Notes: a model not told the origin generated them from the letters alone. Positions 21,062 to 38,249 are shown, counted from the stretch's first letter. The stretch is DNA of 64,000 bases from an uncultured Eubacteriales bacterium (GCA_934481515.1 CAKSPO010000003.1:4250-68249); one strand, 5' to 3'. Numbers and translations are program-made.

Positions 21062-24000
21062 ATGAGAAAAACACGATTCACGAGATTCTTGTGCCTGACA
21101 CTGGCGCTTTTGTGTCTTGTGAGCAGCACTGTGCTTGCCGTCAGTGCCGACAGCGGATCGGGTCATTCGAATACGACGGATAAGTCGATCAATGACTATC
21201 AGCAGACGCTGGAGACCATCAGTTACGACGAGTATCAGGCACTGTACTTCAAGGGGGTCACGAAAGCAACGGAAGCCACCGTTCTGCCGATGACCGACAA
21301 CTGGGTTTTCCGGAACGGCGGAATCACCATCACGATGACCGACGGCGTATGGAAAATGACCGACTCCGACGGAACCGTTTATACCTCGGCGGATGCCGCG
21401 GCGGAGGCGGGGCATGAGAAGAGCGATCTTGCCTATGTGGATTCCTTTGACGGTGTGACTGCGGTCTATACGCCGAGCGTCGGAACCATGACATGGAAGG
21501 TCAGCCTGACCGAGAAGAACATCCGCTCGGCAATGCTGTTCAACCTTTCTCTGCAATATTATCCCATTGCCTCCAAACCGAGTGCGGTGGAGCGGGAATT
21601 CTACATCAACGGGGAAGCGCCTTTCTCCGAAGCGCGTTCGCTGTCGCTGTCCAAGATGTGGTCCTCCTATCAGCAGGGCGGAACCTCCTCCGACAAACGG
21701 GAGATGGTGGGAACCTACCGTCTCGGGAAGGATGATACGCTGGAGGCGGTTGTACGCGACGCAGAGGATGCGGGATTTGTTTCCGGAAAGACCTATACGG
21801 TTTCCGACGACCGTTCTTCCGTCAGCGTGATTTATCCGAAGGTCTTCACCGTGAAAATCAATGCGTTTCTTGAGAAATACGGAATCCGGTTCTTCGGGAC
21901 GGATGCGGACAACAATGAAATCCGTCCTTCCCAGTTGCAGACGCCGGAATGGATGGAGTATCTGTTCCACGACAGCGAAGGCTTTTCCCATACGTATGCC
22001 GCAAGTGCATCCGAAATTTATGCAAGTGAAAACTTCGGATTCCTCATCGGACCGGATGCAGACGGGAATCTGGAATTTTCGCTGAAGAGCGTCAACGAGC
22101 CTGCCGTATTCTCTTCTCTGACGCTTCTGCCGTATACTTCTGCTCCTTCCTACGAGGATTACCGGAAGGACATTGTTTCCAAAGTGGGCGACGCCCAGGG
22201 AAAAAGCATCCTGAAGCTGGAAGCAGAGTATACCAGACATACCTCTACCAATGTTGTCTATCCGGTGGAGGACAGAACCTCTGCAAACTCCTCTCCGGTG
22301 GATACCACCCGCACAGTGCTGAATACCATCGGTACGGAAAAGTGGGAGACTGCGGGACAGTGGGTGGAATACACCTTCTCGGTGGATTCCTCCGGATTTT
22401 ATGATGTGTATTCCCGTTTCCGCCAGAGCTACCTTGACGGTATGTATGTCAACCGTTCTCTGCAGCTCTTTACCGAAGGCGACCGCGCGGACTACGTGAG
22501 CCGGAACGGAAATGATGCCGGCTACTATGACGGCCTCCCCTTTGCCGAGGCGGCAAAGCTCCGCTACAATTACGGAACCGGCTGGCAGGTGACCAAACTT
22601 GCCTCCGAGGGCGGCGAAAATGTTCCTACCTATCAATTGTATCTGCGCGCAGGCGAGGTTTACACGCTTCGTCTGGAGGTGACGCTCGGTTCCATGAGTG
22701 AGCAGGTACAGAAGATCCGGGCGATCCTGAATGCACTCAATGACGATTACCTTGCAATCATCAAGCTGACCGGAACGTCTCCCGACGACTACCGCGACTA
22801 CAGCTTTACACGGCTTCTGCCGGATACCATGATCGATTTCTTTACCCAGAAGGCAGCGCTGAACGAGGTATCTGCGTTCCTGAAGAACACTGCCGGGGTT
22901 GCTTCCACCTATTCCGGTACCTGTGACAAACTCAGTGCTCTGCTGGACAGAATGGGACTGGACGAAAACGAAATTGCAAAGAACCTTGAAACCTTCAAGA
23001 GCTATGTCGGCTCGCTCGGTACGTTCCTGACCGATGCCATGACGCAGCCGCTTCAGTTGGATTATCTGATGATTCAGCCTGCGGACGCGGAAGCGCCCAA
23101 GGGAGCGGCGGGCTTCTTCCGGACGCTGTGGCATGAGCTGAAAAGCTTCATTCAGAGCTTCTTCCGCGATTACAACAGCATGGGTGCAATGGAAAGCGCG
23201 AACGGCGCCGGCGAAACCATCAATGTCTGGGTTCCTTACGGACGTGACCAGGCAAACGTGCTCCGGAACCTTTCCACCAACGGCTTTACCCAGCAGACCA
23301 ATATTGCCGTAGACCTGAAGCTGGTCAACGGCGGAACCCTGCTGCCTTCCATTCTGGCGGGCATGGGACCGGATGTTTACCTCGGACTCGGACATGAGAC
23401 GGTCATCAACTATGCAATCCGCGGTGCATTGCTGAACATTGAAACGATGGAACATGATTCCGTGAAAGACTTCGAGCGGGAGATGCTGAAGGATTTCAAT
23501 GCAGCGGCACTGAACGTGCTCGGAATCGCCGATGCCGACAACGAGATGCATTATTACGGCTTGCCGGAAACGCAGGGCTTTTCCATGATGTTTGTCCGTC
23601 TGGATGTTCTGTACAATCTGGGCATTGAGATTCCCAAGACATGGGAAGAAATCTATGTGGCACAGTCCAAGCTGGAGTCCAATAATATGAAGATCGGTGT
23701 TACCACCGACTATAAGATTTTCCTCTATCAGATGGGAGGAGACCTGTGGGCAGATAACGGTATGCGGATCAATCTGGATTCCACAATGGGACTTGCGGCA
23801 TTTGAAAAGATGTGCGGCATGTTTACGCAGTATTCCTTCCCGTACCAGTATGAGGCGGCAAACCGCTTCCGTACCGGAGAAATGCCGATCATCATTGCAA
23901 GCTATACGGCACTGTACAACCAGCTGAAGGTATTTGCAACCGAGCTTGACGGCAACTGGACCTTCGTTCCGATGCCCGGCTGGGAGACCGTCAATGAGGA

Positions 24001-24817
24001 CGGCACCACCACCATCAACAACAGCTCTATTTCCGCTGTTTCCGCAGTCGTCATGGTAGACGGAGTTAAGAAGCGGGATGCGGCATGGGAGTACATGAAG
24101 TGGTACACCGGAGCCGAAGCGCAGTCTTCCTACGCAAACGAGATGGTGGCAATCATCGGTGACTCTGCAAAGCACTCCACCGCAAACCGCGAGGCGCTCA
24201 AGAGCATGCCTTGGACGCACGACGAGTATGTGGAGGTTTCCAAGCAGTTCGAAAACCTTGCTTCCGTCAACAACTACCCCGGATATTACTACATTGACCG
24301 TTACACCAACTTCGCATTCCTCGCTGCTTACAACGATGATGCAAACCCGACCACAAAACTGCTCAGCTATATCAATACCATCAACAACGAAATTACCCGG
24401 AAGCGGGCAGAGTTTGGTCTGGAAACGCTGGAAATCGGTCAGACGCTGGCAAAGAAGAGAATGGATCAGGCAACCGCTGCATTGAAGCTGCTGGAGGATA
24501 ATCATAAGAAGGATGCATATACCGCTGCCATCGAGCTTGCCAAATACGGTATTGCAAACCAGAAGGTTGCGCAACTGCGGGAGGCTTCCGAGCAGTTCAT
24601 GACGCTTTTGAAGGGCGAGTGGGACGGCTCGACGCGCACCATTACCAAGGTCAGCGGAAAGACCGCTGAAATGCCTTCCTATTATGTAAATGTCAGCAAG
24701 CAGACCATGGAGACCAAATCCGGAGGCTACAGAATAGAAGACCTGAACCTTCAGGAACTGCTCTACTTCATTTCCGAGTGCCTCGGAGATGCGGCGGATG
24801 CACTGGCTTCTTACTGA
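21062..24817 (+). CDS. Giant (1251-aa) extracellular solute-binding protein: N-terminal ~700-aa extension with CBM-like beta-sandwich + C-terminal family-1 sugar SBP module
   Basis: The start is MRKTRFTRFLCLTLALLCLV (AGGAGG RBS). It has a signal peptide or anchor without a lipobox. WETAGQWVEYTFSVDSSGFYDVYSRF has a CBM-like signature (nt ~22220-22690). From ETINVWVPYG onward (nt ~23210-24430) it reads as a typical LplA/CUT1-type SBP. Confidence 0.75.
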   Translation: MRKTRFTRFLCLTLALLCLVSSTVLAVSADSGSGHSNTTDKSINDYQQTLETISYDEYQALYFKGVTKATEATVLPMTDNWVFRNGGITITMTDGVWKMTDSDGTVYTSADAAAEAGHEKSDLAYVDSFDGVTAVYTPSVGTMTWKVSLTEKNIRSAMLFNLSLQYYPIASKPSAVEREFYINGEAPFSEARSLSLSKMWSSYQQGGTSSDKREMVGTYRLGKDDTLEAVVRDAEDAGFVSGKTYTVSDDRSSVSVIYPKVFTVKINAFLEKYGIRFFGTDADNNEIRPSQLQTPEWMEYLFHDSEGFSHTYAASASEIYASENFGFLIGPDADGNLEFSLKSVNEPAVFSSLTLLPYTSAPSYEDYRKDIVSKVGDAQGKSILKLEAEYTRHTSTNVVYPVEDRTSANSSPVDTTRTVLNTIGTEKWETAGQWVEYTFSVDSSGFYDVYSRFRQSYLDGMYVNRSLQLFTEGDRADYVSRNGNDAGYYDGLPFAEAAKLRYNYGTGWQVTKLASEGGENVPTYQLYLRAGEVYTLRLEVTLGSMSEQVQKIRAILNALNDDYLAIIKLTGTSPDDYRDYSFTRLLPDTMIDFFTQKAALNEVSAFLKNTAGVASTYSGTCDKLSALLDRMGLDENEIAKNLETFKSYVGSLGTFLTDAMTQPLQLDYLMIQPADAEAPKGAAGFFRTLWHELKSFIQSFFRDYNSMGAMESANGAGETINVWVPYGRDQANVLRNLSTNGFTQQTNIAVDLKLVNGGTLLPSILAGMGPDVYLGLGHETVINYAIRGALLNIETMEHDSVKDFEREMLKDFNAAALNVLGIADADNEMHYYGLPETQGFSMMFVRLDVLYNLGIEIPKTWEEIYVAQSKLESNNMKIGVTTDYKIFLYQMGGDLWADNGMRINLDSTMGLAAFEKMCGMFTQYSFPYQYEAANRFRTGEMPIIIASYTALYNQLKVFATELDGNWTFVPMPGWETVNEDGTTTINNSSISAVSAVVMVDGVKKRDAAWEYMKWYTGAEAQSSYANEMVAIIGDSAKHSTANREALKSMPWTHDEYVEVSKQFENLASVNNYPGYYYIDRYTNFAFLAAYNDDANPTTKLLSYINTINNEITRKRAEFGLETLEIGQTLAKKRMDQATAALKLLEDNHKKDAYTAAIELAKYGIANQKVAQLREASEQFMTLLKGEWDGSTRTITKVSGKTAEMPSYYVNVSKQTMETKSGGYRIEDLNLQELLYFISECLGDAADALASY

Positions 24818-24851: not shown

Positions 24852-25796
24852 ATGGCAAAAAAATCAGAATATAAAGCAGTTGCCAGAAAGGATATGACCT
24901 ACAGACAGTGGATCTGGAAGGAAATGAAGCGGAACCGGATTGCGTATCTGCTGATTGCACCGTATGTGCTGGTTTTCACCGTTTTCACCATCGTCCCGGT
25001 CATCCTTTCCATCGTCATCAGCTTTACGGATTTCAACATGCTGCAATGGCCGAATATGGTTTGGCTCGACAACTACATCAACCTGTTCTTCTCGGATGAC
25101 ATTTTCCTGATCGCCTGCAAAAACACCTTCGTTTTTGCCGTCATCGTCGGACCTGCATCCTACCTGATGTCGTTTTTGGTCGCGTGGTTTATCAACGAGC
25201 TTCCCCCGCGGATCCGTTCGGTGATTACGCTGATCTTCTATGCACCGTCCATTTCCGGTTCGGTGTATCTGATCTGGAGCACACTGTTCTCGTCGGACTC
25301 CTACGGCTGGGTCAACGCAATGCTGATGGAGACGGGCTTTATCACAGAACCGGTCAACTGGTTCAAGAATGAAAAGTATGTCATGCCGCTGTGTATCATG
25401 GTTGCTCTCTGGACTTCTCTGGGGCACGCGTTCCTGTCCTTTATTGCAGGCTTGCAGGGCGTGGATCGCGCCCAGTATGAGGCGGGTGCCGTGGACGGCG
25501 TCAAAAACCGCTGGCAGGAGCTGTGGTACATTACACTCCCCAACATGAAGCCGCAGCTGATGTTCGGTGCGGTCATGTCCATTACAAACTCCTTCGGCTT
25601 CGGAGGCGTGGTTACGGCACTTTGCGGTTTCCCCTCGGTCAACTACGCGGCGCATACCATCATGCACCACCTGGAGGACTACGGCGGATCCCGATATGAG
25701 ATCGGTTATTCTTCGGCAATCGCTGTGGTGCTGTTCGCAATCATGATCGGCGCGAACATGGTTGTCAAGAAAGTTCTTTCAAAGGTAGGTTCGTGA
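24852..25796 (+). CDS. ABC sugar-transporter permease (MalF/LplB-like), pair 1
   Basis: 314 aa with six predicted TM segments and the EAA-loop YEAGAVDGVKNRWQELWYITLP. Confidence 0.9.
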   Translation: MAKKSEYKAVARKDMTYRQWIWKEMKRNRIAYLLIAPYVLVFTVFTIVPVILSIVISFTDFNMLQWPNMVWLDNYINLFFSDDIFLIACKNTFVFAVIVGPASYLMSFLVAWFINELPPRIRSVITLIFYAPSISGSVYLIWSTLFSSDSYGWVNAMLMETGFITEPVNWFKNEKYVMPLCIMVALWTSLGHAFLSFIAGLQGVDRAQYEAGAVDGVKNRWQELWYITLPNMKPQLMFGAVMSITNSFGFGGVVTALCGFPSVNYAAHTIMHHLEDYGGSRYEIGYSSAIAVVLFAIMIGANMVVKKVLSKVGS

Positions 25797-25797
25797 T

Positions 25798-26670
25798 ATG
25801 GCAAAATTAAGAACAAGAAAGCACAGAGTTGTCCTTTCCCGTTCGGCGGGAGGAGATGCCGGTATCACAGTCATTCTGACCATTCTCGGACTTTTCATGT
25901 TTCTGCCGATGGTATATGTCGTTTCCCAGTCCCTGAAGCCTTTGGATGAGCTTTGGATGTATCCGCCGCGGTTTCTGGTAAAAAATCCGACGTTTTCCAA
26001 CTTCCGGGATCTGTTTACGCTGATGAATGACTCCTGGGTTCCGTTTTCCCGTTACATCTTCAACACCGTATTTATTACGGTCGCAGGAACGTTCGGACAC
26101 CTCTTTATTGCCTCCATGTGTGCTTATGCACTGGCAAAGATCAAGTTCCCGGGAGCAAACGGAATTTTCAAAACCATCCGTACATCCCTGATGTTCCACT
26201 CCACCGTGACGAGCATCACCAGCTTCATGCTGATGAGCGCCTTCCATATGATTGATACCTACTGGGCGATTATCGTTCCGGCATGGGGATACACATTGGG
26301 GCTTTACCTGATGAAGCAGTTTATGGACACGCACGTTGCAGACGCGGTGCTGGAAAGCGCACGGCTGGACGGTGCCAGCGAAATCCGCACCTACTGGACC
26401 ATTGCGATGCCGATGGTCAAGCCGGCATGGCTGACGCTGATTATCTATTCGTTCCAGAGCCTGTGGAACTCCGGTTCTTCCATTTATATTTATTCCGAGC
26501 AGCTGAAATCGTTCAACTACGCGATCGGACAGATTACAGCCGGCGGTATCAAGCGTGCCGGAGCTTCGGCGGCTTCCACTGTGCTGATGATGATGGTTCC
26601 GATTCTGGTCTTTGTGATTACGCAGTCCAACATCATTGAGACCATGGGTTCCAGCGGTATGAAAGACTAA
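25798..26670 (+). CDS. ABC sugar-transporter permease (MalG/LplC-like), pair 1
   Basis: 290 aa with the EAA-loop LESARLDGASEIRTYWTIAMP. It starts 1 nt after the previous stop. Confidence 0.9.
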   Translation: MAKLRTRKHRVVLSRSAGGDAGITVILTILGLFMFLPMVYVVSQSLKPLDELWMYPPRFLVKNPTFSNFRDLFTLMNDSWVPFSRYIFNTVFITVAGTFGHLFIASMCAYALAKIKFPGANGIFKTIRTSLMFHSTVTSITSFMLMSAFHMIDTYWAIIVPAWGYTLGLYLMKQFMDTHVADAVLESARLDGASEIRTYWTIAMPMVKPAWLTLIIYSFQSLWNSGSSIYIYSEQLKSFNYAIGQITAGGIKRAGASAASTVLMMMVPILVFVITQSNIIETMGSSGMKD

Positions 26671-26681: not shown

Positions 26682-28835
26682 ATGAAAAAATTAAGATCCA
26701 TATTGCTTGTCGTATTGGCACTCGTTACGATCATTCCGCTTGCAGTAGTCAGTACCAGTGCTTCGTCGGCATACCAGACATACACCTACTCCATTTCCGG
26801 TACCGCATTGTATTCTCCGGATGCTTATACGGCAGAGCAGGCTCTCGGCTGGCGTGAGATGAAAATGGATAAGGACTTCAAAAACCCCAGCGATATCGTC
26901 ACCGATAAGCAGGAAAATGTCTACATTGCCGATACGGGAAACAACCGGATCGTGGTTTTCAACCGGTATCTGGAGTATTCGTTCTCCATTTCCGCGTTTG
27001 TCAACGATCAGGGAAACAATGACTCCCTGCAGGGACCCCGCGGCGTATTTGTCACGGACACCTCCATCTGGGCATGCGATACCGACAAGAACCGTCTGGT
27101 GGAATTTGATCTGGAAGGAAATTTTGTCCGCATCGTTTCCGCACCGGAAAGCCAGCTGTTTGATCAGAGCGCCATCTATAAGCCGATTGCCATGGCAATT
27201 GACCAGTACGGCAGAATTTACGTCGTGTCCTCCTCTACCTATCAGGGGGTCATCGTCATGGATTCCGAAGGCGACTTTGTCGGATTCATCGGGGCACAGG
27301 CGGTTACCATTTCCGCATGGGAAATCATCTGGAGACGGTTTCAGACCGATGAGCAGAAGCTGTATTCCTCCAGCAAAGTTTCCACTGAGTATAACAACCT
27401 GACCATCAATGACGAGGGCTTCATTTATGTGACGACCTCCAGTATTGATGAAAGTTCTGTCAGAGGCGCCATTACGGCCAAGTCCAAGGAAGGAAAGTAT
27501 ATGCCTGTCAAGCTGTTGAATCCCGCAGGAAGCGAGATCATGCGGCGGAACGGGTTCTGGCCGCCGGCAGGTGAAATCGACTTTTCCACGACCACCGACT
27601 CTAAGGTCAAGACAACGGGTGTTTCTACCGTAACAGACGTTGCTGCAGGTCCGGAAAAGACGTGGACCATCATTGATTCCAAGAGAAACAAGCTTTACAC
27701 CTACGATTTCGACGGAAATCTGCTCTTCGCCTTCGGTGACAGCGGATCCATGCTGGGAAGCATCTCCAACATCCGCGGTGTCACGTATCAGGGAGATACC
27801 ATGTTGGTATTGGATGCGGGAGCCGGAAACGGCGGTGTGGTGGTCTATGAGAGAACCGAATACGGTGACCTGTTGCTGGAAGCAATTGCCGCAGAGAACT
27901 CTCTGGACTTCAATTATGCGATTGAATGCTGGAACAAAGTGCTTCAGCGAAACTCCAACTTTGACGCGGCGTATGTCGGAATCGGAAATGCGCTTTACCG
28001 CAGCGGCGAGTACAAAGAGTCCCTGCACTACTATGAGGTTGCGTACGATACCGAAAACTGGTCCAACTCCTATAAGGAAGTCCGGAAGGAGTGGATGGCA
28101 AATTGGTTCTTGCTGTTGGTTGCAATCATCATCATTGTCATTGTCGCCGTGGTGAAATTCTTCACGTGGGCAGGCAAGGTCAACAAGCGGGTTGCCACGG
28201 ACGGGCGGACGCACAAAACCTTCGGACAGGAGCTTTTGTACGGATTCTATGTGATCTTCCATCCGTTTGACGGATTTTACGATCTGAAGCATGAGCATCG
28301 CGGATCGGTACGCGCGTCGCTTGTGTTCATTGTGCTGACTGTTCTGGCGTTCTTCTATCAGAGCATCGGTACCGGATATGTAATGAACCCGACCAGAGAA
28401 TTTGCATCCATCTGGATGCAGGTTATTTCCGTGCTGGTTCCGTTCTTCCTGTTTGTTTTGGCAAACTGGTGCCTGACGACCCTGTTTGAAGGAGAGGGAA
28501 GCTTCCGGGATATCTTCATCGCGTGCTCCTATTCACTGTTGCCGCTGGTGCTTCTGCTTATTCCTGCGACGCTGTGCTCCAACTGGGTGGTTGCCACGGA
28601 AGCGACGATCATCACGCTGCTTTCCACAGTTGCGTTCATCTGGGTCGGAATCCTTTTGTTCTTCGGCACGATGGTGACGCATGACTATTCGTTGTTCAAG
28701 AATCTGATCACGATTCTGGGAACCATTCTCGCAATGGCTTGTATTGTGTTTATCATTCTGTTGTTCGGTATGCTGCTGAGTAAGCTGGTTGGCTTGGTGA
28801 CCAATATCGTAACGGAAATTCAGTACCGTGTATAA
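26682..28835 (+). CDS. Signal peptide + NHL-repeat beta-propeller + TPR-like segment + C-terminal multi-pass Yip1-like membrane domain
   Basis: 717 aa. NHL-type blades include VYIADTGNNRIVVFN, IWACDTDKNRLVEFD and RIYVVSSSTYQGVIVMD. The TPR-like segment is AIECWNKVLQRNSNFDAAYVGIGNALYRSGEYKESLHYYEVAY. Five or six hydrophobic helices start at WFLLLVAIIIIVIVAVV (nt 28092-28832). Confidence 0.7.
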   Translation: MKKLRSILLVVLALVTIIPLAVVSTSASSAYQTYTYSISGTALYSPDAYTAEQALGWREMKMDKDFKNPSDIVTDKQENVYIADTGNNRIVVFNRYLEYSFSISAFVNDQGNNDSLQGPRGVFVTDTSIWACDTDKNRLVEFDLEGNFVRIVSAPESQLFDQSAIYKPIAMAIDQYGRIYVVSSSTYQGVIVMDSEGDFVGFIGAQAVTISAWEIIWRRFQTDEQKLYSSSKVSTEYNNLTINDEGFIYVTTSSIDESSVRGAITAKSKEGKYMPVKLLNPAGSEIMRRNGFWPPAGEIDFSTTTDSKVKTTGVSTVTDVAAGPEKTWTIIDSKRNKLYTYDFDGNLLFAFGDSGSMLGSISNIRGVTYQGDTMLVLDAGAGNGGVVVYERTEYGDLLLEAIAAENSLDFNYAIECWNKVLQRNSNFDAAYVGIGNALYRSGEYKESLHYYEVAYDTENWSNSYKEVRKEWMANWFLLLVAIIIIVIVAVVKFFTWAGKVNKRVATDGRTHKTFGQELLYGFYVIFHPFDGFYDLKHEHRGSVRASLVFIVLTVLAFFYQSIGTGYVMNPTREFASIWMQVISVLVPFFLFVLANWCLTTLFEGEGSFRDIFIACSYSLLPLVLLLIPATLCSNWVVATEATIITLLSTVAFIWVGILLFFGTMVTHDYSLFKNLITILGTILAMACIVFIILLFGMLLSKLVGLVTNIVTEIQYRV

Positions 28836-28858
28836 TGACCGGCAGAGGAGGTTGTAAA

Positions 28859-31800
28859 ATGAAATCCATGAAAAAAATAGTTGCGACACTCTTAGCCGTC
28901 ATTTTAACCGTCAGTGCTCTGAGCGGTCTGTTCGTTATTGAGATCAGCGCGGAGGACACGGTCGCGGAGCTTCCGAAGATTGCGGATTACCCGATCACCG
29001 TGTACAGAAACCCGCAGGAAAAGCTGGCGACCATGACAAAAATGCTTTCCCGTGACGGATATGAGCTTTGGATTGACAAACAAAGCGGCGAGGTTGCCAC
29101 GGTCGAGACGGCATCCGGAAACATCCTGTTCTCCAATCCGTATGATGTTGCAGGCTCTACCGGTTCTGTTTCCACCAAGGGTCAGCTCCTGTCGCAGATT
29201 ATTATCAACTATACCGACAACGGTATGAGCAAGCAGCTTTACAGCTATGCGGATGCTGCCTGTAACGATCAGATCAATGTACAGCGGATCAAGAACGGTG
29301 TCCGTGTCGAGTATACCATCGGGCGTGAGGACGGAAGAAAGCTGGTTCCGATCTGGATTTTCGGCGAGAGCTATTCCAAGTACATTGTTGAGCCGATGAC
29401 GGCTGCGCTGAACGAGGGAAGCGTATCTCAGTTCCAGTACGACCGTTTTATGAACTTCTGGCAGACCGTTGATATCAATAAGAAATCCTCTGCGTTTCAG
29501 GCGCAGAACATTCTGAAGTATCCGGCACTGGGCGAAGCGTATCTGTACGATGAAAACGGAATCGTTTACATCACCGAAGAGGACGGCAGTTTTTATCTGA
29601 ACAACCGGGGAGAAAAGGTTCCGCAACGCCGGATTCTGCACGCTTTCAAAACCGACCAGATCTCCATCAGCGATAAAAACTGGGCAGAGACCATGATCAA
29701 AACCTACTGCTCGGATTATTCCTACGAGCAGATGGATGCCGACCATGAAGAAACCGGCTATGTTGCAACGGATGAACAGTATCCGGTGTTCAAGATGGCT
29801 CTGGAGTATTCCATTGACAAAAACGGAATGAGCGTCCGTCTGCCCTGCAACGGATTGCGCTACGATATGACGGCATATACTCTGGAGAGTGTCAGTATTC
29901 TTCCTTACATGGGTGCCGGCAACAATAAGAACGCGGGCTTTGTTTACACGGCGAAGGATCTGGAAGGCAATGAGACGATTGAGGAAACGGTCGGATATAA
30001 CTTCTATCCGGACGGCTCCGGCTCATTGTTCGATTTCGACCAGTTGAACACCACCTCTACCACGGTGGTGCGCGGAAAGGTGTACGGACTGGACTATGCC
30101 TACCATGAAATCAGCGGTGTAACGTATCAGAAATCCATCCGGTATCCGGTTTACGGAACGGTGTCGAGCGAAGTGTATTACGAGTACTCCTATCTGGACA
30201 CGGTGGATAAGGATACCGTGCTGGTATCGGAGCGCGTTTCCCACACGGTCAAGACGCTGGAAGAGTTGAAGAAGGAGCTGGCTGACAAGACGCTGACCAC
30301 CGGAAAGCTGGAGAACAGCATCCGTGTGGAGCAGAAGGGGTTCCTTGCGATGATTGAATCCGGAGATTCCCTTGCGGAAATTTCCACCTATCATGCAGGC
30401 TCCCTCAGCAGCTACAGTATGATGATGAACTACTTCAACCCGAAGCCGAAGGACAGCTACGATATTTCCGAATCCATTTCCGTCACGTCCAGCAAGACCA
30501 TGACGGTGGTGTCCGACCGGAAATATACCGGAAGTCTTGCGTTGCGGTATATTATGCTGTGCGATAAGAACGTGGCGGCAAAGGCGAAGGAGACAGAGCC
30601 TTCCTATACGTACTACGATGCAAGCTGGCTCGGAATGGCGGAAGCCTACCGCGATTATCTCTGCGAGAGCGGCGCACTGTCGGCACTGACGGCAGACGAG
30701 GTAGAGAAGGATATTCCGCTTTACATTGAGTCGTTCGGTGCTCTGGAAACGGTTGAGACCATCGCCACGATGCCTGTCAACGTGATGACACCTTTGACGA
30801 CGTTTGAAGATTTGATGACCATGTACACCGAGCTTTCCGAGCGCGGAATCAAAAACATCAACTTCAAACTGACGGGCTTTGCCAACGGAGGAATGTATGC
30901 GACGGTTCCGTACCGCCTGAAGTGGGAAAAGAGCGTCGGCGGCAGTGACGGCTTCCGCGACCTCGTACAGAAGGCGGATGCCATCAATGCACGCGGGGAC
31001 GGTTCGCATCTGGGACTTTATCCCGACTTTGATTTCGCATACTTTACGAACACTTCTCTGTTTGACGGACTGAGTCTGAAAAAAGACGCGGTTCGTACCA
31101 TCGACAACCGGTATACTTCTTACCGGCAGTACAGCGCAACCCGGCAGAGCTACACCAGCTTCTATCAGCTGGCAATCTCTCCGTCGAGATACGACAAGTT
31201 CTACACGAAGTTGCTTTCCAATTATGAGGAGTACGGGTTGCGCACCATGTCGGTGGCATCTCTCGGAAACACACTGAACTCCGACTTTGATGAGGACGAT
31301 CCTTACAACCGCGAGGACAGCAAGGAAAACACCGTCGATGCGCTGAAGGAGATCACCGGAAAGGGATACCGCCTGATGGCAGACGGCGGCAATGCCTATA
31401 CGTGGGCATATATGGATCACCTTCTGAATGTGGATCTGGATTCCAGCCGGTATGTCAAATCCAGCGCGTCCATCCCGTTTGTCGGCGCGGTTCTGCACGG
31501 CTACATTCAGTTTGCGGGAACTCCGCTCAACAAGGAGGGCGACACCAACTATGCAATCCTCCGTGCTTTGGAGAACGGTTCCGGAATTTACTTTGTTCTT
31601 TCCTACCGCAACACGGATAAGCTGAAGGAGGATCTCTACCTCAGCCAGAACTATTCCGTGCGATATGATATCTGGCTGGAGGACGTGGTCAAATACTACT
31701 CCAAACTGAACGGACTTTTGCGGGATGTACAGACCAAAGCAATCATCGGTCATGAGTTCCTGGTCGGTGAGCGTGTCCTGGACCTGGATGAACTGGAAGC

Positions 31801-33091
31801 CGACATTGCGGAAAAGCTGAAGAATGCGATCCGCGAGGAGGATAAAAAGCAGCAGGCTCAGGAAACGGAGCAGCTGATTTCGGTTGCCGACGCATGGGGC
31901 GTGGCGTTCAATGCCGAGAAGACCATGAAAAACATTCTCAGCGCCATGCAGATTGCCAACAATGGTGAGACCGGTTCCCGCGACTATATCAACAGCTACA
32001 AGAACTTCTTCAATTCCAATAAGGATCTTTCTTCCGAGGTAACCGCATTGCTCGCCGCCATCAAGAGCGGATACGAGACCAGCACCTCCGGTGTTGAGCT
32101 TGCCAAAAAGATCGCGGAGCTGGATGCATTCCTGCTTGCCGGCGGTTCCAAGGCAGATACCGGAGAGGATTCCGGAAACACTCCTGAGGAAGGAACCGAC
32201 GCTCCGGCAACCACTGCCGGGGATGGAGTCGGGGACGGTTCTTCGACGGAAACGCCCGGCGTGGATCGGGAACTGACGGACGAGGAGCGGGAGGAGCTGA
32301 AGAAAGCGCTTTCCGAAGAGGATCTGAAGCTTGCGAACGAAATGGAAGCCGAGATTGCTGCGCTGCAGTCTGCGGTTCGGAATTCTTACCGCGATAACGT
32401 CAGCGCATTGACCACGAAAATGGCTTCTCTGCGGGAATACACCACAAAGCTGATGTCCTACTCCGCAAAGATGCAGGCATGGCTCAAGGAGGCGCAGGAT
32501 CTGTTGGTCAACCTGGACAAAGCCATTCAGCTGGTAGAGAATACACCGCTTTATGACGAGGATCCGGATACGCGTGCAAAGCTTTTGTCTGCAATGGAGG
32601 AGTACCGCGCACTTGCCGCAACGTACATGAGCAGTGTTCAGGCGCAATACAATCTGAACAAATCCTATCTGGAAGAGGGCGGAAGAAATTACGTTCTGAA
32701 GGTTGCCTGCGACGAGATCCGGAAGCACTTTGTGAACGGCTTTGCAGAAGGCGGAATTTATGCCGCAAACTACGGAGCTTATGAAGAGCTTTTCCTGTCG
32801 CTTTGCGAGAACTTCATTTTCGACGAAGAGGACATTCTGAATGCCATCAAGACGACGGACGATGACGACGGCAAGCAGGACGAAACCGTGACGGATACAA
32901 ACGACCGGTATGTTGTCAACAACAATCGGATCGTTGCGGTAACCTACGGAGACCGCAATGCTGCAACAGGCGAAAAAACGGCATACAAGACATTCGTCCT
33001 CAACTACAACACTTACGCCGTGCGTGTCACGTACAACAACATTACATATACAATTCCGAGCGGCGGATATGTAGTGGTTCTTTACGATTGA
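28859..33091 (+). CDS. 1410-aa secreted/N-terminally anchored protein of unknown function (resembles what I recall as DUF5696; possible TIM-barrel glycosidase-like core) with long coiled-coil/acidic C-terminal region
   Basis: The start is MKSMKKIVATLLAVILTVSAL (AGGAGG RBS). Core strings are ILPYMGAG, FYPDGSGSLFDF, IPLYIESFGA, NINFKLTGFANGG and LMADGGNAYTW. From aa ~985 onward it is heptad-like and Glu/Asp-rich. Confidence 0.6.
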   Translation: MKSMKKIVATLLAVILTVSALSGLFVIEISAEDTVAELPKIADYPITVYRNPQEKLATMTKMLSRDGYELWIDKQSGEVATVETASGNILFSNPYDVAGSTGSVSTKGQLLSQIIINYTDNGMSKQLYSYADAACNDQINVQRIKNGVRVEYTIGREDGRKLVPIWIFGESYSKYIVEPMTAALNEGSVSQFQYDRFMNFWQTVDINKKSSAFQAQNILKYPALGEAYLYDENGIVYITEEDGSFYLNNRGEKVPQRRILHAFKTDQISISDKNWAETMIKTYCSDYSYEQMDADHEETGYVATDEQYPVFKMALEYSIDKNGMSVRLPCNGLRYDMTAYTLESVSILPYMGAGNNKNAGFVYTAKDLEGNETIEETVGYNFYPDGSGSLFDFDQLNTTSTTVVRGKVYGLDYAYHEISGVTYQKSIRYPVYGTVSSEVYYEYSYLDTVDKDTVLVSERVSHTVKTLEELKKELADKTLTTGKLENSIRVEQKGFLAMIESGDSLAEISTYHAGSLSSYSMMMNYFNPKPKDSYDISESISVTSSKTMTVVSDRKYTGSLALRYIMLCDKNVAAKAKETEPSYTYYDASWLGMAEAYRDYLCESGALSALTADEVEKDIPLYIESFGALETVETIATMPVNVMTPLTTFEDLMTMYTELSERGIKNINFKLTGFANGGMYATVPYRLKWEKSVGGSDGFRDLVQKADAINARGDGSHLGLYPDFDFAYFTNTSLFDGLSLKKDAVRTIDNRYTSYRQYSATRQSYTSFYQLAISPSRYDKFYTKLLSNYEEYGLRTMSVASLGNTLNSDFDEDDPYNREDSKENTVDALKEITGKGYRLMADGGNAYTWAYMDHLLNVDLDSSRYVKSSASIPFVGAVLHGYIQFAGTPLNKEGDTNYAILRALENGSGIYFVLSYRNTDKLKEDLYLSQNYSVRYDIWLEDVVKYYSKLNGLLRDVQTKAIIGHEFLVGERVLDLDELEADIAEKLKNAIREEDKKQQAQETEQLISVADAWGVAFNAEKTMKNILSAMQIANNGETGSRDYINSYKNFFNSNKDLSSEVTALLAAIKSGYETSTSGVELAKKIAELDAFLLAGGSKADTGEDSGNTPEEGTDAPATTAGDGVGDGSSTETPGVDRELTDEEREELKKALSEEDLKLANEMEAEIAALQSAVRNSYRDNVSALTTKMASLREYTTKLMSYSAKMQAWLKEAQDLLVNLDKAIQLVENTPLYDEDPDTRAKLLSAMEEYRALAATYMSSVQAQYNLNKSYLEEGGRNYVLKVACDEIRKHFVNGFAEGGIYAANYGAYEELFLSLCENFIFDEEDILNAIKTTDDDDGKQDETVTDTNDRYVVNNNRIVAVTYGDRNAATGEKTAYKTFVLNYNTYAVRVTYNNITYTIPSGGYVVVLYD

Positions 33092-33110
33092 GAAAGGAGG
33101 CAATCTACTT

Positions 33111-34076
33111 ATGACAAACGAGATCAATGCCGGCATGCCGGCAGCAGCCAAAAAGAAGAAAAAGAAAATTGCCTCCCTTGACAGACGCAAGGCGCGGGCG
33201 GGATGGTTCTTTGTCCTTCCGTTCATCATTGGATTTGTCATTATTTATATTCCGATGATTTTCCAGTCCATTCAGCTGAGCTTCAGTGAGATCATTTACG
33301 AAGGCGGCGATTACTACCTGAATTTTGTCGGATTCAAAAACTATCAGGATGCACTGTTCGTTGACCCGGAGTTCGTACAGACCCTGGTCAGCGGACTCAA
33401 GCAGCTGGCATTCGACATTCCCGCCATTCTGATTTTCTCTCTGTTCATGGCGGTAATGCTGAATCAGAAGGCAGCAGGAAGAGCGTTCTTCCGTTCCGTT
33501 TTCTTCATTCCCGTCATTCTTTCCACCGGTATTATGGAGACCATTGCCAATGCCGATATTCTGAATGACTATATGGATGAGGGAAGTATAGATACGGGAG
33601 CCGGTACCAGCGCGGCGGATCAGTTGATTTCCACCATGGATATTGAGCGATTGTTTGCCAATATGAAGGTCGGAACCGAGATTGTCACCTACGTTACCAC
33701 CGCCATCAACAATATTTACGATATTGTCAACCGTTCCGGCGTGCAGATGCTGATTTTCCTTGCCGGTCTGCAGTCCATTTCTCCCGCGATTTACGAGTCG
33801 TGCAAGATTGACGGCGCAACCTCGTGGGAAACCTTCTGGAAGATTACCTTCCCGATGATCAGCCCGATGATTCTTGTCAACGGCGTTTATACCATCATTG
33901 ACTCCTTCACCACCGAGAGCAATCAGGTTATGGTCTACGTCAAAAAGGTGTACAGCGAATCCAGTGAGATGAGCACGGCAATGGCTTGGATCTATTTTCT
34001 GATCGTTATGCTGATTGTTGCGGCAATTGCGGGAATTCTCTCCGCGTTTGTCTTCTATCAGCGGAAGAATGACTAA
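33111..34076 (+). CDS. ABC sugar-transporter permease (MalF-like), pair 2
   Basis: 321 aa with the EAA-loop YESCKIDGATSWETFWKITFP. AAAGGAGG RBS. Confidence 0.88.
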   Translation: MTNEINAGMPAAAKKKKKKIASLDRRKARAGWFFVLPFIIGFVIIYIPMIFQSIQLSFSEIIYEGGDYYLNFVGFKNYQDALFVDPEFVQTLVSGLKQLAFDIPAILIFSLFMAVMLNQKAAGRAFFRSVFFIPVILSTGIMETIANADILNDYMDEGSIDTGAGTSAADQLISTMDIERLFANMKVGTEIVTYVTTAINNIYDIVNRSGVQMLIFLAGLQSISPAIYESCKIDGATSWETFWKITFPMISPMILVNGVYTIIDSFTTESNQVMVYVKKVYSESSEMSTAMAWIYFLIVMLIVAAIAGILSAFVFYQRKND

Positions 34077-34095
34077 GGAAGGAGGAATTTACCTG

Positions 34096-35355
34096 ATGAA
34101 TACACCGAATGTTGAAAAGACGCCGACGATTCGGCGCGAGACCAAAAACAAGATCCGTGTCAATTTCGACCGCACACCGCTGTCGGAACGTCTGAAGGCG
34201 AAGTTCCTTTCCTTCTACTTTCTGCAAAAAGTAGTTCTGTGGATTTTCCGCATGGTTCTGATGATCGGTATTTCCTATATCGTCATTTATCCCTTCCTGA
34301 CGAAGATCGCCGGTTCCGTCATGGCGCCGGAGGATTTCGTGGATGTCACGGTTCGCCTGATTCCGAAGCACCTGTCCCTGGATATTTACCGCGGAATTAT
34401 TACAGAGCTAGGATATTTTGAAGCCCTGCGGAATACCTTCCTGCTTTCTCTTTCCTGTGCCATCGTGCAAACTCTGATCTGCTCTCTGATCGGTTACGGA
34501 TTTGCAAAGTTCAAGTTCCGCGGACGCAATCTGATCTTCCTTCTGGTCATGCTGACCATGATTATTCCGCACCAGACGCTGCAGCTTTCCATGTATATGG
34601 AATTCCGCTTCTTTGATGTACTCGGTATTGTCCGGTTGCTCAAGGGCGGCGGAATCGAATTCTTCGGACATAATATCAAGAATATCGGCGCTGTTGCAGA
34701 GGTGACGGACGAATTCGGCAGAGTGATTACAGAAGCACAGCCGGGCGTTCTCGCGGGCTTCTTCGAGAAGCTGAACGTTTTGCCGGATGCCATCCGCTGG
34801 GGAGAGCACGTTACGGCAAGCGGCATCACCGAGTATTCGGTAAATATGGAGCTGACGCAGCGCGGAATCGACCTGACCAATACCTATTTCCCGATGCTTC
34901 TTCTGTCGCTTGGCGGTCTGGCGTTCAAGAACGGATTGTACATCTTCCTTCTGCGCCAGTTCTTCCGCGGGATTCCGGACGAATTGGAAGAGTCTGCTTA
35001 CATGGATGGCTGCGGAACCTTCCGTACCTTTGTGCAGATCATTCTCCCGCTGTCCATCCCGATGATGATTACGGTGTTCCTGTTCTCCTTCTGCTGGCAG
35101 TGGACGGATAACTTCTATACGCCTCTGCTGGTGAAGATCGGAAGCACAAGCAACACGAAATTCCTGATTGACCTGATAGACGCAACCAAGATCAGTGAGT
35201 TGACCAAGGCAATCAAGAATACGGATCAGACCCTCTATACCACTGCATTCCGGAACACGTGCGGTCTTTTGATTATCGCACCGCTGGTTGTTCTCTATGC
35301 CTTCTGCCAGAACTTCCTGGTACAGGGTATCGAGCACTCCGGTATTGCAAACTGA
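34096..35355 (+). CDS. ABC sugar-transporter permease (MalG-like), pair 2, with ~95-aa extra loop
   Basis: The start is MNTPNVEKT (GGAGG RBS). It has the EAA-loop EESAYMDGCGTFRTFVQIILP. A non-hydrophobic insertion runs from FFDVLGIVRLLKGGG to RGIDLTNTYF (nt ~34608-34890). Confidence 0.85.
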   Translation: MNTPNVEKTPTIRRETKNKIRVNFDRTPLSERLKAKFLSFYFLQKVVLWIFRMVLMIGISYIVIYPFLTKIAGSVMAPEDFVDVTVRLIPKHLSLDIYRGIITELGYFEALRNTFLLSLSCAIVQTLICSLIGYGFAKFKFRGRNLIFLLVMLTMIIPHQTLQLSMYMEFRFFDVLGIVRLLKGGGIEFFGHNIKNIGAVAEVTDEFGRVITEAQPGVLAGFFEKLNVLPDAIRWGEHVTASGITEYSVNMELTQRGIDLTNTYFPMLLLSLGGLAFKNGLYIFLLRQFFRGIPDELEESAYMDGCGTFRTFVQIILPLSIPMMITVFLFSFCWQWTDNFYTPLLVKIGSTSNTKFLIDLIDATKISELTKAIKNTDQTLYTTAFRNTCGLLIIAPLVVLYAFCQNFLVQGIEHSGIAN

Positions 35356-35577: not shown

Positions 35578-36858
35578 TTATTTTACATAGTCAAATTCAA
35601 AGTCATAGATAGAAACCGTATGCCCATCCCGGCAGCCTTTTGCCTCCAATGCTTCAAAAACGCCGCTCTTTTGCAACACGCGCTGGAAGAAATTCAGGGA
35701 TTCATAGTCGTCAAAGTTGATCTGTCCCATCAGATTTTTCAGCCATTCGCCTTCCACATAGAAGGTATCGTTTTCCCGGCGAATGATTGTTTCCTTTCCG
35801 CTTCCGGCAAAGGTATCTTCCGGCACTGTTTCCGCTTCGTAAATCTTCATCGGCGGGAGCTGTTTCAGCTTTTCGTCCACCAGCCGGATCATAGCGTCCA
35901 CGCCCTCTCCGGTGGCGGCGGAAATATACAGGAGGTTCCACCCGTTTTTTCGCACAAAGGATTCAAAAGCGGGAATGTCTACGACCTCCCGATCCAGAGC
36001 ATCGCATTTGTTTGCAAGAATGATCTGCGGGCGGGAGGCAAGCTCCTCGCTGTAGCGCGCCAACTCCCGGTTAATCTTCTGAATGTCCTCTATCGGATTC
36101 CGCCCCTCAAAACAGGAGATGTCCACCACGTGCAAAAGCAATCGGCAACGGTCGATGTGGCGGAGAAATTCGTGACCGAGTCCGGCTCCGTCTGCCGCGC
36201 CTTCAATCAGCCCCGGAATGTCGGCGGCGACAAATCCGCTGCCCTCTCCCGTCCGGACGACGCCGAGGTTCGGAGAAAGCGTTGTAAAGTGGTAGTCGGC
36301 GATTTTGGGCTTTGCAGAAGAGATGCGGGCGAGCAGAGAGGATTTTCCGACACTCGGATATCCGATGATGCCGACATCCGCCAGCATTTTCAGTTCCAGA
36401 AGCACTTCCTTTTCCTCGCCCTCCGTGCCGTTTTTTGCGAACATCGGAACCTGTCGGGTCGGTGTGGCAAAATGACGGTTTCCGAAGCCGCCGCGACCGC
36501 CGCGGCAGGCGATATAGTCGGCTCCGTCGTTCTCGGACATATCGTGGAGAATCCGATTGGTTTCCGCATCTCGGATCAATGTTCCGGGGGGAACCGGAAT
36601 GACAAGGTCGGGCGCCGTTGCGCCGTGAAATTTTGCGCCGCTTCCGTCGCCGCCGCGTGCCGCCGCAAATTTGCGCTTGTAGCGGAAGGCGAGAAGGGTA
36701 TTGGAGCCGGGATCCACCCGGAATACAATATTTCCGCCGTGACCGCCGTCGCCGCCGTCGGGACCTCCTGCGGCAACGTACTTTTCCCGGCGGAAGGAGA
36801 CGGCACCGTTTCCGCCGTCTCCTGCTTTGATATGAATTTTTACGTGATCAATAAACAT
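35578..36858 (-). CDS. obg: GTPase Obg/CgtA
   Basis: It has the N-terminal glycine-rich fold MFIDHVKIHIKAGDGGNGAVSFRREKY, G1 GYPSVGKSS, and a C-terminal TGS-like/OCT domain. Confidence 0.97.
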   Translation of the reverse strand: MFIDHVKIHIKAGDGGNGAVSFRREKYVAAGGPDGGDGGHGGNIVFRVDPGSNTLLAFRYKRKFAAARGGDGSGAKFHGATAPDLVIPVPPGTLIRDAETNRILHDMSENDGADYIACRGGRGGFGNRHFATPTRQVPMFAKNGTEGEEKEVLLELKMLADVGIIGYPSVGKSSLLARISSAKPKIADYHFTTLSPNLGVVRTGEGSGFVAADIPGLIEGAADGAGLGHEFLRHIDRCRLLLHVVDISCFEGRNPIEDIQKINRELARYSEELASRPQIILANKCDALDREVVDIPAFESFVRKNGWNLLYISAATGEGVDAMIRLVDEKLKQLPPMKIYEAETVPEDTFAGSGKETIIRRENDTFYVEGEWLKNLMGQINFDDYESLNFFQRVLQKSGVFEALEAKGCRDGHTVSIYDFEFDYVK

Positions 36859-36914
36859 CCGAATACCTCCGATCCGACCGCCGGAATTTTGAGAAAAGCA
36901 ACGCCGTGATTGCG

Positions 36915-38249
36915 TTAAGGGGTTGCGTCGTCTCCCTTCATGCGGATAATCAGTTTGATGGGCGTTCCGGAAAACCCGAAGGTTTCCCGGAGACAGTTTT
37001 CAATAAATCTTTGATAAGAAAAATGGAACAGCTCCACGTTGTTGCAGAAAATCACAAATGTCGGAGGAGCCACTCCGATCTGTGTCATATAGTAAATTTT
37101 CAGACGGCGCCCCTTGTCGGACGGAGGCTGAACCCGGATCATCGCGTCGCCAAGCACATCATTCAGCATTCCGGTTGTTACCCGCATGACGGACTGCCCG
37201 TAGACGTAGGCAATGCGCTCAAACAGGGTGGAGACCCGCTGACCGGTCTTTGCCGAGAGATAGAGGATCGGAGCATAGGGCATGTAAGCCAGTGCGGTTC
37301 GGATCCTGTTGTTGAACTCATTGACCGTGGAATTGTCCTTTTCGATCAGATCCCACTTGTTGACCACGATAATCACCGCTTTTCCGGCGTCGTGCGCGAT
37401 GCCGGCGATTTTAGTATCCTGGTCGGTGATTCCGGTGGAAGCGTCGATCATCAAAAGACACACATCCGCGCGTTCCACTGCCATGTGCGCGCGGAGCACG
37501 CTGAAATGCTCAATCTTGTCGTCAATTTTCGACTGTCGGCGGATTCCGGCTGTATCAATGAAGGTGAACTTTCCGTATTCGTTTTCCAGTTGTGTGTCCA
37601 CGGCATCCCGCGTGGTTCCGGCGATGTCGGAAACGATCAGGCGATCCTCACCGATCAGGCGATTGATGATGGAGGATTTTCCGGCATTCGGCTTTCCGAT
37701 CACGGCGACATGAATGCTGTCGTCATCCTCATCTCCGTCCTGCCAGTCGGTAAGCTGTTCCATGCAGGCATCCAAAAGGTCGCCGGAGCCGCTTCCGTGA
37801 ATGCTGGAAACGCCGATAGGATCCTCGGAAAAACCAAGCTCATAAAATTCGTAAAATTCTGCCGGAGGTTCTCCGATGCGGTCACATTTGTTGACGCAGG
37901 GGATGACCGGTTTTCCGCTTTTTTTCAGCATGACGGCAATTTCCCGGTCGTCGGCGGTCAACCCAGTCCGGACATCGCACATGAAAATAATCACGTCGGC
38001 GGTGTCAATGGCAATCTGCGCCTGCAGGCGCATCTGACGCAGAATCACGTCATTCGTTTTCGGCTCAATGCCGCCGGTGTCAATCAGCACCAGCTTTTTG
38101 CCGCGCCATTCGGTTTCGCCGTAAATCCGGTCGCGGGTGACGCCCGGCGTGTCCTCCACAATGGAGCGGCGCTCTCCGATCAGTTTATTGAAAAGGGTGC
38201 TTTTGCCGACATTCGGGCGGCCGACAATGGCAATCACAGGTTTTGACAT
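36915..38249 (-). CDS. der: Ribosome-associated GTPase Der/EngA (tandem G domains + KH-like)
   Basis: The start is MSKPVIAIVGRPNVGKSTLFN. The second G domain has GKPNAGKSS. Confidence 0.97.
   Translation of the reverse strand: MSKPVIAIVGRPNVGKSTLFNKLIGERRSIVEDTPGVTRDRIYGETEWRGKKLVLIDTGGIEPKTNDVILRQMRLQAQIAIDTADVIIFMCDVRTGLTADDREIAVMLKKSGKPVIPCVNKCDRIGEPPAEFYEFYELGFSEDPIGVSSIHGSGSGDLLDACMEQLTDWQDGDEDDDSIHVAVIGKPNAGKSSIINRLIGEDRLIVSDIAGTTRDAVDTQLENEYGKFTFIDTAGIRRQSKIDDKIEHFSVLRAHMAVERADVCLLMIDASTGITDQDTKIAGIAHDAGKAVIIVVNKWDLIEKDNSTVNEFNNRIRTALAYMPYAPILYLSAKTGQRVSTLFERIAYVYGQSVMRVTTGMLNDVLGDAMIRVQPPSDKGRRLKIYYMTQIGVAPPTFVIFCNNVELFHFSYQRFIENCLRETFGFSGTPIKLIIRMKGDDATP

Follow-up and report, generated by a model that had tools for sequence, protein, structure and literature searches.

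DagB (ZGAL_3152, ZgGH129) of Zobellia galactanivorans is an exo-alpha-1,3-(3,6-anhydro)-D-galactosidase with a solved structure (PDB 5opq and 8rzg-8rzk; Ficko-Blean et al. 2017, PMC5698469). The enzyme is periplasmic and is encoded in a Bacteroidota polysaccharide utilisation locus (PUL) for carrageenan, together with sulfatases and GH127. It is inactivated by mutation of D202, D486, E517 or E531, and of the two catalytic residues of NagBb, a glycoside hydrolase family 129 (GH129) alpha-N-acetylgalactosaminidase from Bifidobacterium bifidum (PDB 5wzn), it retains just the aspartate (PMC5698469). A Clostridia relative of DagB is described here. It is encoded at 28859..33091 (+ strand, stop codon included) of a 64,000-nucleotide stretch from an uncultured Eubacteriales bacterium (GCA_934481515.1, CAKSPO010000003.1:4250-68249; hereafter the window), has 1410 residues, belongs to Pfam family DUF5696 and is the product of the fifth of seven co-directional, tightly spaced genes, four of which encode ATP-binding cassette (ABC) permeases. 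The reading favoured here, to which a probability of roughly 0.55 is given, is that this protein is an extracellular glycan-processing enzyme with the DagB fold, working within a seven-gene uptake cassette. Its fold, its family membership and the topology of a large insertion in its C-terminal domain were established with high confidence; we infer hydrolytic activity and its coupling to transport at about even odds.

Gene, family and fold

The gene occupies a stop-free frame at 28835-33091 (+), with an ATG start at 28859 and a ribosome-binding site, AGAGGAGG, at 28845-28852, 7 nt ahead of the ATG. An identical 1410-residue protein was predicted on eight contigs of public metagenome assemblies. 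One search returned more than 1000 homologues of 1250-1400 residues, an exhaustive search returned 3606 clusters of DUF5696 homologues (50% identity, E <= 1e-3), and relatives were located in at least 372 GTDB species genomes; the gene is therefore real, far beyond chance. All of these genomes are metagenome-assembled, come from the guts of ruminants and humans and belong to uncultured Clostridia, Eubacteriales or Oscillospiraceae.

Residues 1-31 (28859..28951, +) comprise MKSMKK, a 21-residue hydrophobic stretch and the end ISA, after which the sequence continues ED; the family consensus ends similarly, with VSA before A. Residues 3-32 form the sole hydrophobic segment of the protein, and neither a lipobox cysteine nor a C-terminal anchor was found in the translation. 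The segment is predicted to be a signal peptide, cleaved at this site, or a signal anchor, and the rest of the protein would therefore be extracytoplasmic.

The protein matched the Pfam model DUF5696 (PF18952) over residues ~292-968 with 419.2 bits (E 3.9e-125), against a curated gathering threshold of 25.6 bits. Glyco_hydro_129 (PF11308), the model of the GH129 catalytic module, did not match the target at E <= 1. A PDB sequence search with the single protein and with the family profile gave nothing for the core; only designed helical bundles were matched by the inserted segment described below, and these were rejected as compositional noise.

Residues 32-1040 were modelled with AlphaFold2 (AF2) from 44 sequences, giving a mean predicted local distance difference test score (pLDDT) of 69.5. 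The beta-rich N-terminal half was confident, and parts of the barrel fell below 50. Foldseek searches of this model against the PDB returned DagB first (5opq, E 1.2e-13, and 8rzk, ~1e-13), followed by NagBb (5wzn, E 1.5e-9) and by the GH31 enzyme YicI (E 2.5e-4). NagBb, like the target, comes from a gut Gram-positive bacterium and is related to DagB in sequence (E 8e-10), and no sequence-level match to 5wzn was obtained from the target sequence or the family profile. The GH31 match (alpha-glucosidases/xylosidases; PDB 8t7z) covered the beta-sandwich and the triosephosphate isomerase (TIM) barrel more weakly, with TM-scores of ~0.2, and no sequence relationship of YicI to the target was detected.

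Three parts were recognised by Foldseek and by profile-profile alignment with hhalign: a beta-sandwich, a (beta/alpha)8 barrel, in which pLDDT is partly below 50, and an immunoglobulin (Ig)-like C-terminal domain. The expanded N-terminal beta-rich region spans residues 32-585 (28952..30613, +); it consists of AF2 strands with pLDDT mostly 80-94 and is collinear with the N-terminal beta-sandwich of DagB at about twice its length. The predicted barrel spans residues ~586-960 (30614..31738, +) and was placed by alignment to the TIM barrel of DagB and by the Foldseek matches to GH129 and GH31. Three homologues (P0258, P0264 and P0256) carry 500-800 extra N-terminal residues before DUF5696, in which no Pfam match was found, so large lineage-specific expansions affect the N-terminal region as well.

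For comparison at the sequence level, the DagB sequence was reached from ~260 error-ridden residues in the machine-read supplement of PMC5698469, by way of true homologues, to ZGAL_3152. This protein (P0313) is named "DUF5696 domain-containing protein" at NCBI and scored 41 bits (E 1.2e-10) on DUF5696; on Glyco_hydro_129 it scored 19.7 bits, below the threshold of 25.6. A Dyadobacter orthologue of DagB (5opq match E 4e-227) scored 47.6 bits on PF18952. The DagB clade, on these profile scores, belongs to DUF5696 in its own right. Orthologues of DagB were found split into adjacent or overlapping open reading frames (ORFs) in two loci, at 4001-6099 of L084 (Dyadobacter jejuensis; 221 + 478 aa) and at 126-2205 of L086 (372 + 326 aa), which suggests frameshifts, pseudogenes or sequencing errors.

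A hidden Markov model (HMM) of the narrow clade gave sub-threshold fragments only when compared with DagB sequences; detection of homology needed Pfam, Foldseek and hhalign. When the helical region was left out of the target family (560-975 + 1346-1410 retained), global hhalign to DagB 260-690 gave a probability of 84-87% and E 5e-7 to 9e-7 over 379 columns, compared with E 0.28-0.6 for reversed-template controls. Another hhalign run of the target family against DagB gave E 6e-4 over 255 columns. The mature N-terminus (residues 59-100) aligned to DagB 34-75 with E 0.0037. Given this N-terminal alignment and the insert-free global alignment, the two proteins are judged from their sequences to be collinear end to end, the N-domain of the target being enlarged by insertions, and the link between them to be one of homology rather than of shape alone. 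They share the Pfam family, the domain order (beta-sandwich, TIM barrel, Ig-like domain) and a series of motifs (target/DagB): GMAxAYR/DMAKVYR, W849/W523, PF..H880/PLF..H556, GHEFL/SHEYL and IPSGGY/IPGYGY. The target differs in being twice as long, with ~300 extra residues in the N-domain and a ~375-residue helical insertion in the C-domain, and in a conserved acidic loop after predicted strand beta4 that has no counterpart in DagB. Whereas DagB belongs to a carrageenan PUL, the target is encoded in a Clostridia ABC cassette, and carrageenan-utilisation genes (sulfatases, GH127, catabolism of 3,6-anhydro-D-galactose, D-AnG) were not found in the cassette or its flanks.

A preliminary description of the window, made from its sequence alone, had proposed a 1410-residue exported protein with a (beta/alpha)8 glycosidase-like core. 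The reading frame and N-terminal hydrophobic segment were borne out, and the peptides on which the proposal drew (IPLYIESFGA, TFEDLMTMYTELSERGIKNINFKLTGFANGG, GLYPDFDFAYF, LMADGGNAYTW and GEDSGNTPEEGTDAPATTAGDGVGDGSSTETPG) are all present in the translation; in the AF2 model the quoted hydrophobic peptides form strands with helices between them, as it had envisaged. The barrel guess is supported at the level of fold and homology, because DagB is itself a DUF5696 member, is the top Foldseek match and aligns end to end; catalytic residues, which the description had been unable to place, are still not placeable. It had named a missing barrel or homology to an adhesin as outcomes that would count against its proposal. 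The best matches of the predicted structure were GH129 enzymes, and no similarity to an adhesin was found in the PDB sequence searches or by Foldseek. Its remark that the protein lacks annotation does not hold, given the Pfam match.

The hypervariable insertion

The C-terminal part of the protein (residues 960-1410) was modelled separately with a pLDDT of 85.8. The order of elements was a strand at 961-972, helices at 976-1093, a linker at 1094-1140, helices at 1141-1331 and a five-stranded beta module at 1353-1410. The first strand of the Ig-like domain, IIGHEFLVGERVL (residues 961-975; 31739..31783, +), had a pLDDT of ~88, and H965 and R972, with E978 just beyond it, are kept in 97-99% of homologues. 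It is followed by an alpha-helical, net-acidic insertion (residues 976-1352; 31784..32914, +) in which the long helices exceeded a pLDDT of 90. In the inserts of the homologues, helix-forming residues make up 49%, proline and glycine 5%, and aspartate and glutamate 20% compared with 9% for lysine and arginine. Within the insertion of the target lies a disordered acidic linker of Gly, Thr, Pro, Asp and Glu (residues 1094-1140; 32138..32278, +; pLDDT <50) that is peculiar to this protein and its nearest relatives; in homologues the segment has a median length of 2 aa. The remaining strands of the Ig-like domain form the C-terminal beta module (residues 1353-1410; 32915..33088, +), which was delimited by conservation and by alignment to DagB. 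This module has 58 residues and a mean identity of 66%, corresponds to positions ~577-603 of the Pfam DUF5696 profile and is the last element of the chain in 265 of 266 homologues.

Both flanks of the insertion aligned to DagB by hhalign, GHEFLV of the strand to SHEYLS and YTIPSGGYVVV of the module to ISIPGYGYRIQ. The DUF5696 match of the intact protein stops at profile position 576; when residues 976-1345 were removed it extended to position 603 of 612, and end-to-end alignment to both DagB and the Pfam profile was restored. A natural counterpart of this deletion is the homologue P0221 (934 aa), which has an 8-residue insert and matches profile positions 6-612 in one stretch, ending 4 residues before its C-terminus. 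Since the flanking strand and module are conserved and aligned to DagB, and removal of the helices restores the Pfam match, the segment is an insertion and not a tail. Its helices share 21-34% identity with homologues, and its length ranges from 8 to 1459 aa (median 293, 265 homologues; 374 aa in the target), a striking hypervariable insertion tolerated at a single loop of an Ig-like domain. Judged from these alignments and the model, it forms a helical hairpin or bundle, hypervariable between homologues, that stands out from one loop of the Ig-like C-domain.

The preliminary description had seen here a coiled-coil, acidic tail from nt ~31780 ending in a small beta-rich module, and had asked whether the tail is conserved or variable. 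The start agrees closely with residue 976 (nt 31784), and the helices, the acidity and the module all stand; to its question the homologues answer that the helical part is variable. The status of a tail was lost to that of an insertion inside a conserved domain, and the module proved, by DagB alignment, Pfam coverage and its C-terminal place in homologues, to be a core domain element rather than an appendage. Foldseek of the 960-1410 model gave no structural match with E < 0.05. A weak match to Pfam 4HB_MCP_1 (E 1.4e-4 to 8e-4, below threshold) was not taken as evidence for a sensor domain. Identity as a coiled-coil surface adhesin was likewise rejected: the protein has no anchor motif or domain, the helical part can shrink to 8 residues, and the model had no structural match at E < 0.05.

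Conserved residues of the barrel

No part of the protein is better conserved than the barrel, which has a mean identity of 70% and a constant length of 345-352 aa in homologues. Residue conservation was counted over 267 homologues. Polar residues are conserved at or just after the predicted strand ends, namely E624 (95%), D723 (D/E ~100%), D725, S798 (99%), N845 (100%), D853 (91%), H880 (100%) and N918 (99%), and E905 and K923 are invariant. In the N-terminal region, 99-100% of homologues keep D385, D412 and D532. The acidic loop SLGNTLNSDFDEDDPYNREDS (residues 800-820; 31256..31318, +) follows predicted strand beta4 directly and was recognised by its conservation and as an insertion relative to DagB: L806 is kept in 99% of homologues, N807 and S808 in 97%, D809 in 93%, F810 in 99%, D811 in 90%, R818 in 100% and E819 in 92%. 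In the hhalign alignment the loop, as SLGNTLNSDFDEDDPYNRE, is inserted right after the position of DagB D486.

Among 111 DagB homologues D201, D202, D486, E517, D528, E531 and H556 are invariant or nearly so, and the Michaelis-complex entry 8rzk carries a mutation of D486. By hhalign, D528 corresponds approximately to D853, W523 to W849 and H556 to H880. The counterpart of D202 was placed at D336 by a low-stringency hhalign run and at D385-D412 by Pfam coordinates. On this pattern the barrel site looks maintained, carboxylate-rich and sugar-binding or catalytic, with the catalytic residues of DagB not kept position for position. A shift of catalytic residues has a precedent in the superfamily, in the comparison of NagBb with DagB. 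Because the DagB residues are not conserved in place, enzymatic activity is something that we infer; on the sequence and the model, a glycosidase whose catalytic centre has been re-modelled is the likeliest reading.

The seven-gene cassette and the competing explanations

The first gene of the cassette (21062..24817, +) encodes a 1251-residue solute-binding protein (SBP) in which SBP_bac_1 matched residues ~760-1045 (E 4e-19), behind ~740 N-terminal residues with no Pfam match. Genes 2 and 3 (24852..26670, +) encode a first permease pair, UgpA/MalF-like then UgpE/MalG-like by Pfam and NCBIfam similarity. Gene 4 (26682..28835, +) encodes a 717-residue membrane protein. Besides its signal peptide it has an extracellular NHL-type beta-propeller and TPR repeats, and a multi-pass Yip1 domain forms its C-terminal part. 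After the DUF5696 gene, genes 6 and 7 (33111..35355, +) encode a second permease pair, UgpA-like (321 aa) and MalG-like (419 aa) by the same searches. The window's gene content thus places the DUF5696 gene between two permease pairs, as the preliminary description had stated. The four BPD_transp_1 permeases had their best NCBIfam similarities to UgpA, UgpE, MalG and GlcTU and are also MalFG-like; with an extracellular SBP and MalF/MalG-type permeases the cassette is of CUT1 importer type.

The SBP, about three times as large as is usual, has a signal peptide without a lipobox and a ~200-residue helical C-terminal extension after the SBP domain, and the extension is kept across 80 loci (42-65% identity, full length). 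The MalG-like product of gene 7 has a hydrophilic loop of ~100 aa (residues ~165-267) between transmembrane segments TM3 and TM4, presumably extracellular, which recalls the P2 loop of MalF that contacts the binding protein. In all loci the gene of the beta-propeller/TPR/Yip1 protein keeps its place after the first permease pair and before the DUF5696 gene, and we know of no characterised bacterial counterpart of this protein in a sugar ABC locus.

Synteny was followed by tblastn, with the seven proteins of the cassette in the window as queries against 80 species loci. The order SBP-permease-permease-Yip1-DUF5696-permease-permease was identical in every locus long enough to show it, with identities of 58-92% for the permeases, 54-78% for the Yip1 protein and 42-65% for the SBP; P0249 and P0221, which are distant and insert-poor homologues, are encoded within the same cassette. 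From this fixed synteny it is plausible that the DUF5696 protein is the functional heart of the operon. CUT1 importers of Gram-positive bacteria commonly use a shared, unlinked ATPase of the MsmK/MsmX type. The cassette resembles them in its SBP_bac_1-type binding protein, its MalFG/UgpAE-like permeases and the absence of an ATPase gene from the locus, and differs in having two permease pairs to one binding protein of about three times the usual size, with the Yip1 membrane protein and the DUF5696 protein fixed between the pairs. To our knowledge no system of this composition has been characterised, and none was described in the literature searched.

The flanks are mostly housekeeping (SufBD-like, a PUA methyltransferase and NifU, with obg and der downstream in the target window), and suf and the PUA methyltransferase stand upstream in ~20 loci. 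Neighbouring genes were set aside as a guide to the substrate, the recurrent ones being housekeeping. Isolated neighbours included a GH78 rhamnosidase (L087), PGA_cap genes (L088) and, beside three loci, what we take to be an AraC-type regulator, a label read from sequence and not a Pfam result. Co-variation of insert length with SBP or Yip1 protein length was rejected (Spearman rho -0.30 and -0.17, respectively; 65 loci, uncorrected for phylogeny).

In the favoured reading the DUF5696 protein would be exported or N-terminally anchored. It is built in three parts like DagB; strand 4 of the barrel carries the acidic loop at its active-site end, and an acidic helical hairpin or bundle separates strands 1 and 2 of the C-domain. 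On the outside of the cell it would trim an oligo- or polysaccharide, whose products would be captured by the giant SBP and imported through the two MalFG-like permease pairs, powered by an ATPase whose gene lies elsewhere. The helical insertion would serve as a spacer or docking element that is exposed at the surface, varies between lineages and stands apart from the catalytic machinery.

A number of results weigh against this reading. No catalytic aspartate was found at the end of beta4, where NagBb has D435 and DagB D486: D486 lay opposite M797 and T796 in two hhalign runs, where the family has I/M/L and G/S/T, respectively, beside the 99% conserved S798, and a rough interpolation of Pfam profile coordinates agreed in placing it at about residue 795. 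E517 aligned to G843, which adjoins D842 (D/E in 82%), E531 aligned to N857, and D809 and D811 are conserved, not invariant; the DagB-type invariant set D201/D202, E517, D528 and E531 was not recovered in the target. AF2 confidence was low at 725-780, 800-825 and 842-892, leaving ~40% of the barrel poor. TM-scores against DagB were 0.30 (normalised to query length) and 0.41 (normalised to target length), low values that are expected because the model is longer, multidomain and partly of low confidence. Local hhalign probabilities were modest (19-39%), and direct BLASTP of the target against DagB was not significant. Neither the name or accession numbers of DUF5696 nor its link to DagB was found in the literature searched. 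In the 64-kb window no importer ATPase was found by motif scan or Pfam; a Walker A and LSGGQ pair occurs only in an ORF beside sufBD (motif scan), and an exporter-type ABC protein is encoded at 40324-42279 (Pfam). Recurrent glycosidase or regulator neighbours were absent around the cassette loci and housekeeping genes surround them, a setting unusual for a nutrient-specific locus, and no LPXTG, SLH, choline-binding or other wall or membrane anchor was found in the protein by motifs or Pfam.

The missing acids are what a catalytically dead glycan receptor would show, that is, a DagB fold that has lost its nucleophile and acts as a surface lectin or scaffold passing glycans to the SBP and permeases. 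D486 would then face T796/M797 with no acid, E517 and E531 would have no invariant acidic counterparts, and the replacement of D809, D811 and D842 by N or S in 7-18% of homologues would be tolerated; binding functions already dominate the extracellular parts of the cassette, with its unusually large SBP. We nevertheless regard this explanation as unlikely, in view of the barrel being the most conserved region, with many conserved carboxylates at predicted strand ends and, exactly at the place expected for the nucleophile, an acidic loop of high conservation, and of the known shift of catalytic residues between NagBb and DagB (PMC5698469). The beta4 alignment is moreover uncertain by ~10 residues, and a register anchored on YLG/SLG would put D809 or D811 opposite D486, so the lack of a D486-type aspartate is not absolute. 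The protein could instead be an active carbohydrate enzyme whose chemistry is unlike that of DagB, by a mechanism in which the acidic loop (D809/D811/E812) takes the place of a beta4 aspartate, by substrate-assisted catalysis or by transglycosylation; it would then be effectively a new GH family or subfamily. The conserved set of D723/D725, the LNSDFDEDDPYNRE loop, N845, H880 and N918 contrasts with D201/D202/D486/E517/D528/E531 of DagB, only H880 = H556, W849 = W523 and possibly D853 = D528 are shared, and Glyco_hydro_129 does not match. This proposal is purely conjectural, the loop has an AF2 pLDDT below 50 and neighbouring genes give no clue to a substrate; we hold it to be rather improbable.

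A role in the cell envelope, with the cassette maintaining or recycling a surface polymer of the bacterium itself and the insertion acting as a structural fibre or adhesin-like element, would draw on the housekeeping neighbours (suf and the PUA methyltransferase upstream in ~20 loci, obg/der downstream in the window), on the spread over 372 species of one lineage, as for a core function, and on the length, acidity and fast evolution of the insertion, as for an exposed surface element. Against this stand permeases of the MalFG/UgpAE importer type with an SBP, an insertion that falls to 8 aa with the cassette kept, so that a fibre is not the conserved function, and the absence of LPXTG, SLH and other wall-anchoring motifs and of similarity to known adhesins; such a role appears very unlikely. 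A bolder extension of the favoured reading is that the seven genes may form one physical surface machine, a functional analogue of the Sus "utilisome" of Bacteroidota, with the catalytic centre relocated to the acidic beta4 loop and a new GH family or specificity. The DUF5696 protein would dock through its helical hairpin or C-domain onto the Yip1 protein or the ~100-residue loop of gene 7, and products would pass straight into a dedicated second translocator. This extension is speculative, and we think it improbable.

The favoured reading of an extracellular enzyme in an uptake cassette is not categorically new, since the family is catalogued and has a solved and characterised member in DagB. 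The clade departs from DagB in its size, in its giant variable insertion, in catalytic residues that seem to have been relocated or lost, and in the fixed seven-gene context. Hundreds of species of uncultured Clostridia from the rumen and the human gut carry it, in each case within this one unusual ABC cassette, and for this reason it is probably a major uncharacterised glycan-acquisition route in bacteria that have so far resisted cultivation. Should the protein prove active, a new GH subfamily or family, with a new specificity for its substrate, would be defined by the non-canonical catalytic centre, and the cassette would also be a new architecture for glycan uptake in Gram-positive bacteria.

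Other features of the window

Two + strand ORFs behind the cassette (35620-36909 and 36906-38246) were rejected as operon members. They have no Pfam match and odd composition and are antisense shadows of the real genes there, obg (35578-36858, -) and der/engA (36915-38315, -), which converge on the cassette. Small ORFs at 19893-20494, upstream of the cassette, had no Pfam match, and no regulator was identified among them. Just upstream of the cassette, 17514-19763 (-) encodes a 749-residue protein with BspA-type leucine-rich repeats (E 2e-131) and collagen triple-helix repeats, which is likely a surface protein. A further ORF of 1184 aa at 45338-48892 (+) matched only the Listeria-Bacteroides repeat (Flg_new) in Pfam and is probably surface-exposed.

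Opposite nearly every gene of the window, on the other strand, runs an ORF that is free of stops over the full length, for example at 20987-24574 (-), 30023-33241 (-; 1072 aa, antisense to the DUF5696 gene), 35620-38246 (+) and 8202-10634 (-). These arise because of a near-total avoidance of TTA, CTA and TCA codons, which account for 3 of 1410 codons in the DUF5696 gene and 0 of 1251 in the SBP gene. Over 16 genes CTA was used at 0.1%, TTA at 2% and TCA at 2%, whereas GCA (30%) and GGA (40%) were common and the G+C content at third codon positions (GC3) was 0.66. The opposite-strand frames are shadow ORFs and not genes, and the codon bias behind them is strikingly specific.

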